From: Escherichia coli
GTDB taxonomy: Bacteria; Pseudomonadota; Gammaproteobacteria; Enterobacterales; Enterobacteriaceae
Strand: one strand, 5' to 3'
NCBI RefSeq assembly: GCF_048403405.1
Contig: NZ_CP183129.1
DNA length: 64,000 nt
Part shown: positions 54,901-63,900 of the stretch, piece after piece
How positions within the stretch are numbered: the stretch's first letter is position 1
Layout: each line of letters opens with the position of its first letter
Program-made: the position numbers

Positions 54901-57900
54901 CAATCAACGTTGCGAGGTGATCGGCCAACGCTGCTGAATCGCCAAAAGTACAAAAGGAAGCATGGGGATATTTTTGTGAGATTTTTTCTTTTATGGTCAT
55001 GAGAATATTTTCGCGATTACGGAAAAAAATCACATCTTAATTACTGTTGATAACCATCAGCAAGAGGATCATTGGTTTTTCTATGTTTAATCTTTTTTAT
55101 CCGAAGCCGGTCACATTTATGGCTTGATAAATACCTTTGTTAAAACTCACTTTTGTGTATTTCTCTCAAATAATCCCCTGGAAATTATGCCGGGAGATTA
55201 TAAAGTTCAGGATCATTCATTAGCAAACCATTGCTGCCCCACTCCCTGGGGCTTTAAATCTCTTACGATTCACCATTGCAGGCGTTTCAAATGCGTATCA
55301 ACCTGCCACACTCCCCCACACCAGTTGCCCTTTATGGAACGTCGCCGTTCTCGGCGAGATACGCGCCACCGCCTCGGCGGAACAGGAGGCGTCCACCAGC
55401 ACAAAGCTGGCGTCATCCTGCGCTTTGGGCCAGACGCGCTCGCCTTTTTCATTGAGCGGCAATACATCGCCAGTGGCTAAAAACAGCGAACGGGAGAGGT
55501 TCTGTTCGTTAGGGCGAATATAGAGCTGCGCGTACAGATTGGCTTTTTCCAGCATGTCGCCCAGGCCGTAAGGCGACCAGTGGTCGATAACGCTGTCGGT
55601 GCCAGTCATCACTTTTACGCCTTTGTCGTGCAACTGTTTGAGCGGCATATGCAACGTGCCAATCGGCACCGTCGAGGCGATAGAAATTTGCTGCGCCGCC
55701 ATCCGGTGCGCCAGTTCATCTACCTGTTGCTCATTGAGCGTTGCCAGCGCAAAGGCGTGGCTGATGGTCAGCTTGCCCTTCAGTTGCGGCGTTTTCTCTA
55801 CCGTTTCAACCATATAATTGATGGCTGCCACGCCTGCCGGAGTGGTTTCGTGCAGGTGAATATCGACGCCTTTGTCGTAGTCCAGCGCAATCTGGAACAT
55901 GGTGTCGAGGGATTTTTCCATCGCGCCATCAACACTGGTTGGGTCCAGCCCGCCGACGTAATGCGCCCCTGCCTGCATCGCTTCGCGCATTAAGGGTTCC
56001 GATTTCGACAGCAGCAAACCGTGCTGCGGGAAGGCGACAATTTCACACTCGAAGCCCGCCTGACGTCGCGCCAGCACCGCCTGCAAATTTTGCAGATTTT
56101 TCAGGCCGGAAACCGGTTCGATATTGCAGTGGCTGCGGGCAATGGTAGTGCCTTTCGACTGCAATAAATCGATCAGTTTTTCCGCTCGTTCCTGCGAGTA
56201 CGGTTGCAGCTCCGGCAGCATTTTCTGCTCGAGTTTGATCATGTCCTGGATGGTGGTGCCTGCCGGACGATTGAGCGAGCGCCACGGCCCGCCGTAAAAG
56301 GTTTTGTCGAGATGAATATGCATGTCGCGGGTAGTGGGCAGCATCAGCTTACCGCCAGCGTCATAGTGCGGCAGCGTGGCGTCCGGATGCTGCTTGTTCT
56401 CGCGCAGGGCAACAATTTTGCCGTTCTGAATCTCTACGGTCTGGTGCGCCGTGCGGGTCTGTACTGCCACACCGTTTTCGTAGTCAAAACCGGTTTCCAG
56501 CAGCACGTTGTCGAGATAGTAGTGCGGGTCAGTGATTTTCATGGTGTTATTCGCGTCGCAATGGATTGTGCCAGAGACTGCCGCATGGGCGAGCGGCACA
56601 GAGGTACCAAACAGCGCGGCGGCGGTGACCATCTTACCGCTCTGGCTCAGAAACTCACGGCGGCTATTGCTTTCTTTCATCTTACGTCCTTACGTTTTAA
56701 TAATATGGGTGCCCGTTTCACCGCGCAGCGCCGCAGGCAGGCATTCCGGCGTGGTGATAATCACTTCTTTGCCGCCCTGTTCCAGGAACGTCAGGCTGGC
56801 GATGATTTTTGGCAACATGCTGCCAGGCGGAAAATGCCCTTCCTGCATATAGCGGGTCATGGTGGCAATATCCACCCGATCCAGCGCCTGCTGCTGCGGT
56901 TTGCCAAAGTGAATACACACTTTTTCGACGCCAGTGGTGATCACCAGAATGTCGGCGTGAATTTCACGGGCCAATAGCGCGGTAGAGAGATCTTTGTCGA
57001 TAACCGCGTCCACGCTTTGGTAATCCCCCGCTTCACTGCACACCACCGGAATTCCGCCACCGCCCGCGCCAATCACCACAAAGCCTTGTTGGATCAGCGC
57101 CTTAATGGCAGGTGCTTCTACAATACGTTGCGGTTCCGGCGAGGCGACCACGCGGCGATAGCCCCGTCCGGCATCTTCAACAAAACGCCAGTCAGGGTTT
57201 GCCTTTTGTAATTCGTCACGCTGGCTTTCACTAAAGAATGCGCCGATGGGCTTGGTGGGATGGGCAAACCCCGGATCGTTTTTATCCACTTCCACCTGAG
57301 TCACCACGGTGACGGCTTTTTTCTCACCGTGACGCGCCAGTCGGTTATTCAGCGCCTGTTGGATCAGATAGCCAATGCCGCCTTGCGTATCCGCCACACA
57401 GTTCGCCAGCGGCGTTAAGGGCAGCCCTTCGCGCTCGTGGGCTATCTCCGCGCGGCGTAAATCCAGACCGACCTGCGGCCCGTTGCCGTGGGTCAGCACA
57501 ATGTCGTAATCGGAAGCCAGCATTTCCAGCACCGTATCGGCCACGGCTTTCACCGCCTCCGCCTGATGCTCAATCGACTGGCTGGCGTTATCTTTGATAA
57601 TGCTGTTGCCACCAATGGCAACGACCACAAGTTCTTTCATGTTGTTATGTCCGCTACAGAGGGTGATGGGGTTATGAGAGTGAGGTTGCCCCTCTCCCCA
57701 GAAGGGAGAAGGGATCGTAAGGTGCGTTTGCAGGTCAGACGCCGTAACGTTCGCACCAGCCAAGAATGGCTTTCTCGAAGCAGGCGAATGGTGGATGCAC
57801 AATGCCCGCGCCAATCATGCCGACGCCCGCATCTTTATGGGCGATGGCGGTGTTGATCACCGGCAGAATGCCGCTGCTGCCCACGCGGGTGATGTCGATT

Positions 57901-60900: not shown

Positions 60901-63900
60901 CTTAATAACGTGGTATTATTTCTGCCGCGTTGCAGACCGAGATAAAATTCCTCTTTGTATTTTTCCGCCGGATGTCCGGAAATAAATAAAATAAGCGCCA
61001 GACCTGTTAAATAATCGTCGGCTGATGGCGTAAGGCCAATCCCTAAGCCCATCATACTGGCGACTGCTGAGGCGATATTTTGTTTATCGTTTACGGCCTG
61101 AATAACTGCCCGTCGTTTACTATGTAATTCTTTATTTAACGCCTGATAAAACGGATTATCGCCGCAATAATTAAACAGGGTTTCATTTTCCCCCAGGTGC
61201 TGATGAATAATGTCATGCCACTGTTGCCAGGCGATAAGGTGAAAATTCACAGCGGTCATTTGCAAGGTTGGGGACAGCCAACGCCGACAACGACTCATCT
61301 CTATATGAAGATGTTGACCAACCGTAATGCCTTGATCGTCAAACTGAACCTTATCACCATGCCGGAACAGACCATCAAAGTGAGTGAGTGCCAACCGACA
61401 ACTGTTTGGCGCATTGTCGTACTCTTCACAAAGCAGCGTCAGCAACTGCTGGCGGGCCGGAAGTGCGATATTTACCGCTCTGGCAAAGACCTGTTCAACC
61501 TGTCCTTGCCCCCGCTGCGCCAGAAAATCAGCATCCGCAGTTAGCGCCCACACACACCGTCTTTCTGGTGTGTTGATAGCAAGCCTCCCGGTTTATGCAC
61601 CTGCGGCAATCAGTAACTGCGCAATCTCTTCAAAGCCTCGTTCCCGCGCCAGTTCCAGCGGCGTTTTGCCATATTTATCCGTCATGTGCGGGCTGGCACC
61701 GTGTTCAAGCAATAACTGGACAATCGCCTGCTGTTTAATCCCGCCATCATTAAGCACAATTGCTTCCAGTAGCGGCGTCCAGCCAACATGGTTGGTCTGG
61801 TTAACGTTAATCTCCGTATGCGCCAAAAGCTCTTTTACAATACTTAAATGGCCTTTTTCACAGGCAGGCGTCAGGCCGACACCGCCAAAACGGGTGACGC
61901 AATTAAGATCAGGTTTAGCCGGTAAAATAATCCGTAACAGGGTTAAATCGCCGGTCAGGCAGCTAATTAAAAAAGGATTTGAACATATTTGATCTTGCTT
62001 ATTAATATCCGCTCCGGCATCAATTAATGCCTGAACGCAAGCATATTGCTGATATAAACTTGCCAGCGTAATTGCCGTTTTCCCCTGACGATCGCAGGTA
62101 TTAATATCGACACCCAGCGCAAGGCAGGTTTTTACTTTATCGATATCACCCTGTTGCGCAGCCAATAAATAGTCGGCAGGTAGATTTTTTATAGTCATTC
62201 ACATTCCCCTGGTTTTTGTGGCTGTTTTCGATGAATTGAGAATAGCAACGATAATCTGATAAAAGAACCCGCTTAAATTTAATTCGCCGTATTTCGCCTT
62301 TTTGTTGAATGATGTTCAACAATCTTTTCGCAGTGTGCGGTAGTGCAATATTTGTTTCTTTGACCCGATACCCTTTCACTCAATCAGGTTTTATTTCTCT
62401 ATAGTCTGCACATGTAAGAGTAGCTTTTGTCCATGTCTAACCAGAGGGGAACAAGATGAACGGACTCACGGCAACGGGTGTCACCGTCGGTATTTGTGCA
62501 GGGCTTTGGCAGTTAGTGTCTTCACATGTCGGGCTCTCTCAGGGATGGGAATTATTAGGAACCATTGGCTTCGTCGCCTTTTGCAGTTTTTATGCCGCAG
62601 GCGGCGGTAAATCGGGGTTTATCAGAAGTCTGGCGGTTAATTATTCCGGGATGGTGTGGGCATTTTTCGCCGCGCTGGCTGCCGGTTGGCTGGCCTCGGT
62701 GAGTGGGATTTCTGGGTTCTGGGCGAGCGTGATTACTACCGTGCCTTTCTCAGCGGTAGTGGTCTGGCAAGGACGTTTCGGTTTATTGTCTTTTATTCCC
62801 GGAGGCTTTCTCGGCATGACGCTATTTTTTGCCAGCGGGATGAACTGGACGGTGACATTACTGGGTTTTCTGGCGGGTAACTGCGTGGGGATAATTTCAG
62901 AATATGGCGGACAAAAATTAAGCGAAGCGACGACTAAACGCGACGGGTATTAAAAGTTATTCAAAAATGATTATCTATCTTTAACCGATACCTCTACAGT
63001 CATGGCTGGAGAAATTCATATTCGATAATGGCGGGAATGGTTTAATGAACTCAATTTTTACCGAAGAGAATCTGTTGGCATTTACTACCGCTGCGCGTTT
63101 TGGCAGTTTCAGTAAAGCCGCAGAAGAGTTGGGTTTAACCACTTCCGCCATTAGCTACACCATCAAGCGAATGGAAACAGGGCTGGATGTGGTGCTGTTC
63201 ACTCGCAGTACCCGAAGCATTGAGTTAACGGAGTCCGGGCGTTATTTTTTCCGCAAAGCTACCGACCTGCTGAATGATTTTCACGCCATCAAACGCAGCA
63301 TCGATACTATTTCGCAGGGTATAGAAGCACGGGTGCGCATTTGTATTAACCAACTGCTTTATACGCCCAAACACACCGCACGCTTATTACAGGTACTTAA
63401 AAAGCAGTTTCCAACCTGCCAGATTACCGTGACGACCGAAGTGTATAACGGCGTCTGGGATGCGATTATTAATAATCAGGCGAATATTGCTATCGGCGCA
63501 CCCGACACACTGCTGGACGGCGGCGGCATTGATTACACGGAGATTGGCGCAATTCGCTGGGCTTTTGCTATCGCCCCGGATCACCCATTAGCCTTTGTGC
63601 CGGAGCCGATCGCCGAAAGCCAGCTGCGTCTTTACCCCAATATCATGGTGGAGGACACCGCGCATACGATTAATAAAAAAGTGGGCTGGTTGCTGCATGG
63701 GCAAGAGTCGATTCTGGTGCCAGATTTCAACACCAAATGTCAGTGCCAGATTTTAGGTGAAGGGATTGGTTTTTTGCCGGATTACATGGTCCGTGAGGCG
63801 ATGGCGCAATCCCTGCTGGTTACCCGACAAATCCATAATCCGCGCCAGGATTCACGCATGTTACTCGCAACTCAGCATTCTGCTACGGGTCAGGTGACGC

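Follow-up and report, generated by a model that had tools for sequence, protein, structure and literature searches.

The yahB-yahDEFGIJ genes of Escherichia coli: a distinct, mobile AllFGHK-type locus with a putative role in ureide catabolism

The six-gene block yahDEFGIJ and its divergent regulator gene yahB were analysed in a 64-kb stretch of Escherichia coli DNA (contig NZ_CP183129.1), called here the window. In K-12, a dense block of genes without known function lies at this place (PMC11551758). The yah block spans 6.9 kb (55298-62198), and the open reading frame (ORF) listing and translation agreed with the earlier note on this DNA, which had described six co-directional minus-strand genes with these boundaries and junctions (Table 1). 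All six ORFs, yahJ-I-G-F-E-D, were intact. The genes yahE and yahF overlap by 11 nucleotides (nt) and yahF and yahG by 1 nt (TGATG), with a strong Shine-Dalgarno sequence ahead of the latter junction; gaps of 9, 39 and 94 nt separate yahI from yahJ, yahD from yahE and yahG from yahI, respectively. In the ORF listing, the longest frame of yahI extended to 57814, from a TTG codon. No terminator-like site was found on the minus (coding) strand inside the block, and the gene order recurred in 80 species-level genomes, which sustained the operon architecture that the note had claimed. Ribosome profiling of enterohaemorrhagic E. coli had also led to the proposal of an operon yahDEFGIJ, with footprints in the yahG-yahI spacer during growth in lysogeny broth (PMC4765031). 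The block was 100% identical to several complete E. coli chromosomes, where the gene calls were the same, and was present in 5120 of the 5426 complete E. coli genomes, with a coverage of at least 80% in 4998 of the 5426 (~92%).

Table 1. Features of the yah locus, with positions in the 64-kb window; aa, amino acids
Feature	Position	Strand	Length	Description
yahJ	55298-56680	minus	460 aa	Defined by ORF listing and translation
yahI	56690-57640	minus	316 aa	Annotated ATG start at 57640
yahG-yahI spacer	57641-57734	minus		One hairpin with an 11-bp stem
yahG	57735-59153	minus	472 aa	Predicted AllG/DUF1116-type subunit
yahF	59153-60700	minus	515 aa	Predicted AllF/FdrA-type subunit
yahE	60690-61553	minus	287 aa	GTG start; predicted AllH/DUF2877-type accessory subunit
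yahD	61593-62198	minus	201 aa	Cytoplasmic ankyrin-repeat protein; first gene of the operon
Candidate YahB operator dyad TTTGTTGAATGATGTTCAACAAT	62301-62323	no strand		T-N11-A LysR-type box between yahD and yahC
yahC	62456-62953	plus	165 aa	DUF1097 inner-membrane protein (Pfam PF06496, E 2.4e-26)
yahB	63045-63977	plus		LysR-type regulator, paralog of AllS and PunR

When the proteins were compared by BLASTP with those of the K-12 allantoin region, YahF matched AllF (38% identity over 513 aa, E 3e-101), YahG matched AllG (45%, E 2e-118), YahE matched AllH (25%, E 1e-9), YahI matched AllK (38%, E 2e-56) and YahB matched AllS (38%, E 4e-72). The family models pointed the same way. YahF passed the FdrA model NF004760 (491 bits, cutoff 433), YahE matched Pfam PF11392 (AllH) with E 3.6e-28, and PF06545 was recorded for the homologs of YahG. 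YahI passed NF009007 (645 bits, cutoff 266), scored slightly under the cutoff of the arcC equivalog TIGR00746 (346 bits, cutoff 358) and matched solved carbamate kinases over residues 3-314 (1e19, E 2e-82; 1b7b, E 3e-73). Among the solved structures, YahG matched the uncharacterised DUF1116 protein 3clq over residues 58-463 (E 2e-195) and YahF matched 3dmy, the FdrA protein of E. coli (E 1e-82). Neither of these structural-genomics entries has been given a function or a ligand; 3clq corresponds to a YahG-type ortholog lacking the N-terminal segment of YahG, and 3dmy to the AllF paralog of YahF. The kinship of YahF, YahG, YahE and YahI with FdrA, YlbE, YlbF and YbcF that the note had asserted was upheld by the BLASTP comparison.

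AllFGH and AllK, as FdrA/YlbE/YlbF and YbcF are now called, were characterised between 2022 and 2024, and the oxamate carbamoyltransferase and carbamate kinase roles which the note had cited as a proposal have thereby been shown experimentally. Purified AllFGH interconverts carbamoyl phosphate plus oxamate and oxalurate, in a described mixture with Mg2+ and without coenzyme A (CoA) or ATP (PMC11326118), and AllK is the catabolic carbamate kinase (PMC9843812). Judged by their matches, YahF and YahG are predicted to form an enzyme of the AllF-AllG kind, and YahI is a predicted carbamate kinase.

The orthologs of YahF carry the Pfam domains HMA_AllF_N, CoA_binding and Ligase_CoA, YahF itself is similar to the alpha chains of succinyl-CoA synthetase (E 1e-17 or weaker), and RefSeq names it "acyl-CoA synthetase FdrA". 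These features would suit an ADP-forming acyl-CoA synthetase of the succinyl-CoA synthetase type, in which case the module would act on an acyl-CoA and not on a ureide. We consider this very improbable. The GHAGA phosphohistidine loop required for that chemistry is absent from YahF, where the aligned stretch reads 'vdeqg...lqfarg', no ATP-grasp beta subunit is encoded, and a carbamate kinase gene is a constant part of the operon across phyla; moreover, the AllF paralog, together with AllG and AllH, forms the oxamic transcarbamylase, the described assay mixture of which contained neither CoA nor nucleotide (PMC11326118). The missing loop makes the database name misleading for YahF and fits an acyl-phosphate chemistry without nucleotide transfer.

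A further similarity was detected between residues 2-53 of YahG and residues 504-554 of AllF (E 1.6e-4). The extra ~55 aa at the N terminus of YahG are the counterpart of the AllF C-terminal tail, so that a segment of ~50 residues (window 59000-59153 in YahG; 18190-18348 of locus L002 in AllF) sits on the other partner in the two systems. Single-chain F-G fusion proteins of ~1000 aa are also common in other bacteria. The shifted gene boundary and the fusions argue that F and G act as one enzyme.

The distribution of the module was studied by scanning one genome per species, which returned 80 loci; these were annotated with tblastn and by clustering of ORFs. The gene set and its order were the same in these 80 species-level genomes, and also in Betaproteobacteria and Bacillales. 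The common layout in Enterobacterales and Aeromonas was yahB (divergent) followed by yahD-yahE-yahF-yahG, a gene for a 517-aa membrane protein, yahI and yahJ. Across the 80 loci no other neighbour was conserved around the module, and no allantoin genes were found nearby. Identity to YahG was 86-99% among the loci of Enterobacterales and Aeromonas, 79% for the Janthinobacterium protein and 76-77% for those of Brevibacillus, Paenibacillus and Psychrobacillus, and orthologs from Aeromonas, Janthinobacterium, Brevibacillus and Paenibacillus spanned 76-88%, the next full-length relatives being at most 49% identical; the ortholog group appeared as one representative in a library clustered at 50% identity. 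The ratio of nonsynonymous to synonymous substitution rates (dN/dS) was 0.02-0.09 for yahF, yahG, yahI, yahJ and yahB, 0.10-0.13 for yahD and 0.15-0.30 for yahE (yahD against locus L010 and yahC against L012 were left out as wrong-ORF artefacts); for yahF, yahG, yahI and yahJ, the range of 0.02-0.09 applies to the window against E. albertii, Kluyvera and Raoultella, all of which lack the 517-aa gene. All the genes are under purifying selection, which is strong for yahF, yahG, yahI, yahJ and yahB.

The module was also found on ~70 conjugative IncF plasmids of E. coli and Klebsiella pneumoniae, in the arrangement yahB and yahD-E-F-G-517aa-I and without yahJ. These copies were flanked by insertion sequences and showed ~82% nucleotide identity to the chromosomal genes, as in pHS13-1-IncF (L091, 8979-17412). 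Among the 48 listed plasmids for which a host is stated, about 28 came from poultry or other birds, a proportion in which sampling bias is likely. The conservation of YahG (~77% between E. coli and Brevibacillus) and the carriage by conjugative plasmids argue that the module is useful in nature. Within the AllFGHK type, the yah locus is best seen as a variant of its own, both mobile and strongly conserved, made of component families that are already known and annotated.

The last gene, yahJ, comes after yahI in 75 loci. YahJ scored 715 bits against NCBIfam NF005312 (cutoff 447), and its nearest solved structures were AtzC proteins (E 3e-44 to 1e-28; 6nbo, 3e-44; 2qt3, 5e-30), followed by those of the cytosine deaminase CodA (E 3e-19 to 6e-14). 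The metal and catalytic motifs of AtzC and CodA (HxH...DK, H-x-H-E and D) were recognised in YahJ as HxH at 121-123 (MHIHLDK), DIHLHE at 273-278 and GTDSVIDHW at 360-368, and by these motifs YahJ is assigned to the mononuclear CodA/AtzC class (subtype III) of the amidohydrolase superfamily. Since its scores against the cytosine-deaminase models (70-103 bits) were far under the equivalog cutoffs (403-483), it should not be named cytosine deaminase or AtzC. Members of the CodA cluster remove exocyclic amino or alkylamino groups hydrolytically from 2-oxo-azines such as cytosine, isoguanine and ammelides (PMC12828455). A report on metal-dependent bile-salt hydrolases that cites AtzC gave no lead, AtzC being there only a reference node in a sequence network.

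Unlike AtzC and CodA, YahJ has its own NCBIfam subfamily (NF005312), ~70 extra N-terminal residues and a twin-arginine signal peptide (MKESNSRREFL...AHA|AV, with SRREFL at residues 6-11 and the last five letters at residues 31-35). The twin-arginine motif RRxF[LI] was kept in all 76 of the 76 YahJ orthologs, and YahJ is among the predicted E. coli substrates of the Tat (twin-arginine translocation) pathway (PMC7549933); it is thus predicted to be exported folded and to act in the periplasm. No signal peptides were detected in YahD, YahE, YahF, YahG or YahI. A yahJ mutant showed a mild competitive defect in mice, with a competitive index of 0.70 (PMC7549933). The module lacks yahJ in Janthinobacterium, Aeromonas allosaccharophila, the Firmicutes and the IncF plasmid copies; hence, YahJ is an accessory part of the module and not a universal one.

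In the Firmicute clusters, a cytoplasmic deaminase of another fold follows the kinase, as the next gene in three of the four clusters, and its nearest solved relative is the guanine deaminase 1wkq of Bacillus subtilis (E 1.5e-31). The presence of two unrelated deaminase folds at the same position of the module argues that hydrolytic deamination belongs to the pathway. These clusters also encode an NCS1 transporter nearest to the allantoin permeases (434-442 bits) and a PucR-type regulator, and two of them carry an AllC-like M20 carbamoylase.

The regulator gene yahB was divergent beside the operon in 76 loci. The AllS model was the best family for YahB, with 268 bits (cutoff 372), followed by PunR with 239 bits (cutoff 345); as the former score is under the equivalog cutoff, YahB is a paralog of AllS and not AllS itself, and it is predicted to be an AllS-like activator. 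A dyad of the form ATTGTTGAA-N5-TTCAACAAT, with the T-N11-A signature of LysR regulators, was found 120-200 nt upstream of yahD. With three mismatches or fewer, it was present in 76 of the 82 yahD upstream regions and in none of 1640 shuffles. Its copy in Table 1 was the sole match in the window, and no copy was found in the K-12 all region. We infer that this dyad is a candidate YahB operator. The scan detected no consensus sigma-70 promoter upstream of yahD, a result that is uninformative for a LysR-activated promoter.

The 517-aa membrane-protein gene lies between yahG and yahI in 60 loci and is missing from the versions of Escherichia, Kluyvera, Raoultella, Pseudocitrobacter, Citrobacter amalonaticus and Klebsiella spallanzanii. 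The protein gave no sequence match in Pfam, NCBIfam or PDB, and some annotators name it "xanthine permease". With its AlphaFold2 model as query, the top 50 Foldseek matches consisted only of transporters with a 7+7 inverted repeat (SLC26/SulP, UraA, UapA, SVCT1 and AZG2), so that the family appears, from the modelled structure, to have a UraA/SLC26-type fold. Members of the family include L027 11537-13084, L006 11540-13090 and L093 1711-3216 and 3876-5399, and homologs accompany other AllFG-type clusters in Proteobacteria and Firmicutes.

The gene yahC, between yahB and yahD, was found only in the transporter-less versions (17 loci, with 16 intact ORFs), and no genome locus contained both yahC and the 517-aa gene. 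The transporter-less form occurs across at least six genera, always with yahC. YahC may substitute for the 517-aa transporter, although the complementary distribution possibly reflects one evolutionary event, and we treat it as a lead.

In the yahG-yahI spacers of the transporter-less lineages, tblastn detected no remnant of the transporter gene (best E 0.2). This spacer is a hotspot of palindromic repeats that differ by lineage. The present strain has one hairpin in 94 nt, whereas K-12 has four copies of repetitive extragenic palindromic (REP) or bacterial interspersed mosaic elements in 421 nt, annotated as 'yahH' (L087, 8745-9165) and described as filled with REP23 sites (PMC11551758); Kluyvera and Klebsiella have elements of the CCCTCTCCC...GGGAGAGGG type. 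The last ~35 nt ahead of the yahI start (CATAACCCCATCACCCTCTGTAGCGGACATAACAAC) were conserved across these genera. The hairpin of the present strain (folding energy -21.8 kcal/mol) was rejected as a terminator, because it has no U tail and a folding z-score of -1.3.

The loss of a gene that 60 related loci keep, with variable REP or hairpin elements in its place, raised the question of whether the Escherichia operon is a cryptic remnant, a pathway disabled by the loss of its transporter and with genes devoid of function. The mild defect of the yahJ mutant in mice is the only phenotype reported (PMC7549933), and the absence of a consensus promoter upstream of yahD would also be in line with such a remnant. 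Nevertheless, we judge this explanation improbable. The six ORFs are intact and at least 80% of the block is present in most complete E. coli genomes, the transporter-less form persists in several genera together with yahC, and ribosome footprints were obtained in the spacer (PMC4765031). The low dN/dS of yahJ, yahI, yahG and yahF was measured among transporter-less lineages, which argues against a decaying remnant.

The gene yahD heads the cluster: in 77 loci, its ortholog occupies the position directly upstream of the AllH/AllF genes. YahD gave ankyrin matches in the family-model scan. Its identity was 67-97% among the loci of the genome scan, which belong to Enterobacterales and Aeromonas; the Janthinobacterium copy reached 68% and that of Brevibacillus 53%, and the range over Janthinobacterium, Aeromonas and Brevibacillus was 53-71%. 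The Psychrobacillus protein carries a fusion to TPR repeats, and its gene lies between G and the kinase gene. From Enterobacterales to Bacillales, YahD is thus conserved as part of the module. An anti-phage defence or effector role for yahD was rejected, since PADLOC returned only generic ankyrin matches for it and none for the other genes.

The gene yahE is the least conserved and the fastest evolving, with 25-30% identity to the copies of Firmicutes and Janthinobacterium and 35-64% in most other genera. Within the cluster, yahE was missing from between yahD and yahF in the clade of Enterobacter, Leclercia, Lelliottia and Silvania, in Aeromonas cavernicola and in Serratia sp. DD3, as judged from the yahD-yahF gap in clusters L050, L049, L085 and L066. 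The GC content is 46-47% in yahD and yahE (44-46% at third codon positions) and 55-58% in yahF, yahG, yahI and yahJ (63-73% at third positions). In Pseudocitrobacter (L008 and L011 were compared), YahF, YahG, YahI and YahJ are 95-99% identical to those of E. coli, and YahD and YahE 55-73%. This mosaic of composition and identity suggests that recombination took place recently, its breakpoint lying close to the yahE/yahF junction.

Taken together, the outline of the earlier note stood and several of its details did not. It had made YahJ act alongside YahEFG, whereas YahJ, with its twin-arginine motif kept in all the orthologs examined, is predicted to be periplasmic and is absent from several versions of the module. 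YahB and YahD had been set aside as unexplained extras, and they turned out to be a paralog of AllS and a module member conserved across phyla, respectively. YahE, which had been counted as a core subunit, evolves fastest and several lineages have no copy of it in the cluster, and the missing transporter had gone unnoticed.

The closest known enzyme, AllFGH, acts on oxalurate, and the yah operon might encode a second oxamic transcarbamylase, in which YahDEFG would cleave oxalurate that is imported or made in the periplasm, for example from an oxidised purine, as an isozyme under other regulation. The operon contains the kinase and members of all three AllFGH subunit families, the regulator is a paralog of AllS, and the fold proposed for the transporter includes carboxylate and anion carriers of the SLC26 type; furthermore, the plasmid copies were frequent in E. 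coli from birds, which excrete uric acid, with the sampling bias already mentioned. This alternative seems to us unlikely in view of the K-12 mutants, in which yahEFG are intact: allF or allG mutants formed no oxamate from allantoin, and an allH mutant formed 1.2 mM against 17.7 mM in the wild-type (PMC11326118). Hence, yah does not serve as an oxalurate backup under those conditions, which could be due either to lack of expression or to a different specificity. The identity to the All proteins (25-45%) is also low against that of the YahG orthologs across phyla (75-88%), a sign of a separate, constrained specificity. Moreover, the all region has no copy of the YahB dyad, no allantoin genes lie near the module, and YahJ falls in a deaminase class and not in the cyclic-amidase class.

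Other clusters with AllFG-type proteins offered clues to further substrates. A distant AllF-AllG pair (L092, 6614-10428) lies directly downstream of an AtzD/TrzD ring-opening amidohydrolase, of the cyanuric-acid/barbiturate kind. In s-triazine breakdown, the step of AtzC, the nearest characterised relative of YahJ, comes just before that of AtzD. A cluster under PucR control (L093, 53-10674) combines AllFG with a BiuH-like biuret hydrolase, a carbamate kinase, a uracil phosphoribosyltransferase and two copies of the 517-aa family. The allFGHK genes of nitrifiers lie together with biuH and trtA, the genes of biuret and triuret hydrolases (PMC12625717). The clusters L092 and L093 suggest that oxalurate is only one of several ureides on which the AllFG class, taken as a whole, acts. 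The data on the all mutants, the AtzD and BiuH neighbours, the collocation in nitrifiers and the kinship of YahJ with AtzC make N-acylureas the candidate substrates; they point to close analogues of oxalurate, derived from amino-oxo-azines or oxidised purines. The most likely substrate is an N-acylurea other than the oxalurate derived from allantoin, of the allophanate, biuret, triuret, carboxybiuret or malonurate type.

On balance, we lean towards the view that yahB and yahDEFGIJ constitute the E. coli copy of a widespread and horizontally mobile ureide catabolic module, which would yield ammonia and one ATP through carbamoyl phosphate. In the pathway proposed here, YahJ, exported by the Tat system, would act in the periplasm on a compound that resembles cytosine or ammelide, or on a related amidine, and would release an amino or alkylamino group from it by hydrolysis. 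Import of the resulting product would fall to the UraA/SLC26-fold transporter in most relatives and possibly to YahC in Escherichia, and the imported compound, or its ring-opened form, would be the ureide phosphorolysed by YahFG. This enzyme would convert an N-acylurea and phosphate into carbamoyl phosphate and an amide on a scaffold like that of succinyl-CoA synthetase; the scaffold would perform the acyl-phosphate half of that chemistry, with the amide nitrogen of the ureide replacing the thiol of CoA as the leaving group. YahI would then form ATP, NH3 and CO2 from carbamoyl phosphate and ADP. YahE and YahD may be accessory or scaffolding subunits of YahFG, and YahB would act at the conserved dyad upstream of yahD. 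The narrower assignment of YahD-YahF-YahG, with or without YahE, as a phosphorolytic carbamoyltransferase for a non-oxalurate N-acylurea supplied by a periplasmic AtzC-like aminohydrolase is advanced tentatively, as possible rather than probable.

Several points weigh against this scheme. In line with what the earlier note had said of substrate and physiology, the literature searches yielded no biochemical, genetic or expression study of the function of any yah gene, and DUF1116 and DUF2877 appeared there in incidental mentions only. The E. coli version has no dedicated transporter and the substitution by YahC is read from the complementary distribution, while the model of the 517-aa protein is of low confidence (predicted local distance difference test score 56). 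The Yah cluster contains no ring-opening enzyme, so that one step would be missing if the product of YahJ is cyclic, as cyanuric acid or uracil are. Many copies of the module have no yahJ, so that YahJ could be tied to YahFG by co-regulation and not by consecutive steps. YahD is placed as a putative subunit of the YahFG enzyme from co-occurrence. Some lineages have lost yahE, whereas the All system requires AllH to form oxamate at near-normal levels; the subunit roles may therefore differ between the two systems.

Compared with the AllFGHK/AllS system, the yah locus has the same AllF/FdrA, AllG/DUF1116 and AllH/DUF2877 subunit families, an adjacent catabolic-type carbamate kinase and an AllS-type LysR regulator; in both systems F and G are adjacent and translationally coupled, and the phosphohistidine loop is lacking. 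They differ in the gene order, which is H-F-G-K in Yah and F-G-H-K in All, and in the additions of the Yah module, that is, the ankyrin gene at the front, the Tat-exported aminohydrolase at the end (in Enterobacterales) and, in most species, a transporter inside the operon. The ~50-aa segment is at the N terminus of YahG and at the C terminus of AllF. The yah genes, 25-45% identical to their All counterparts, stand outside the allantoin regulon (allDCE/AllS) with their own operator dyad, their H-type subunit is dispensable in several lineages, and they did not replace allFGH in the K-12 mutants (PMC11326118). The sequence from transcarbamylase to carbamoyl phosphate, carbamate kinase and ATP is also shared with the ygeW-yqeA cluster for anaerobic urate and purine use and with the arginine and agmatine deiminase pathways; these employ transcarbamylases of the aspartate or ornithine transcarbamylase fold, whereas Yah has the unrelated AllFG scaffold.

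The block is flanked by yahC, yahB, pdeL and betT on one side and by an ASCH gene, an ATP-binding cassette (ABC) transporter and yahK on the other. Between yahJ and yahK lie the ASCH gene (54590-55033), a substrate-binding protein gene (53353-54339) and an ATPase ORF (51820-53319). This island of an ASCH-domain gene and a sugar-type ABC transporter (51820-55033) is absent from K-12, which has only 376 nt there; the nearest models of its binding protein are the rhamnose (RhaS) and autoinducer 2 (LsrB) binding proteins, and a promoter-like site with 10 of 12 matches (55226-55197) lies upstream of the ASCH gene. The island was set aside as a clue to the substrate and is treated as an unrelated insertion, because it is absent from K-12 and unlinked to the module in other genera. 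An Rfam search of 54000-64000 for riboswitches and small RNAs gave no match at E <= 1.

This work turns a block of K-12 genes without known function into a concrete and testable pathway model. If the model is true, the AllFGH enzyme class would gain a second substrate specificity and the third of the three carbamate kinase paralogs of E. coli would be explained. It would represent an energy-conserving route for nitrogen-rich ring compounds or their ureide fragments, of relevance to gut and cloacal niches and to the soil turnover of biuret and triazines. It would also provide a function for DUF1097, for the Pfam-less 517-aa transporter family and for a conserved bacterial ankyrin protein. On the narrower and more tentative assignment of YahD-YahF-YahG given above, there would be a third route of E. 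coli to ATP via carbamoyl phosphate, extending from Enterobacterales to Bacillales and carried on virulence plasmids of avian E. coli, and the ankyrin protein would be a genuine subunit of a metabolic enzyme.

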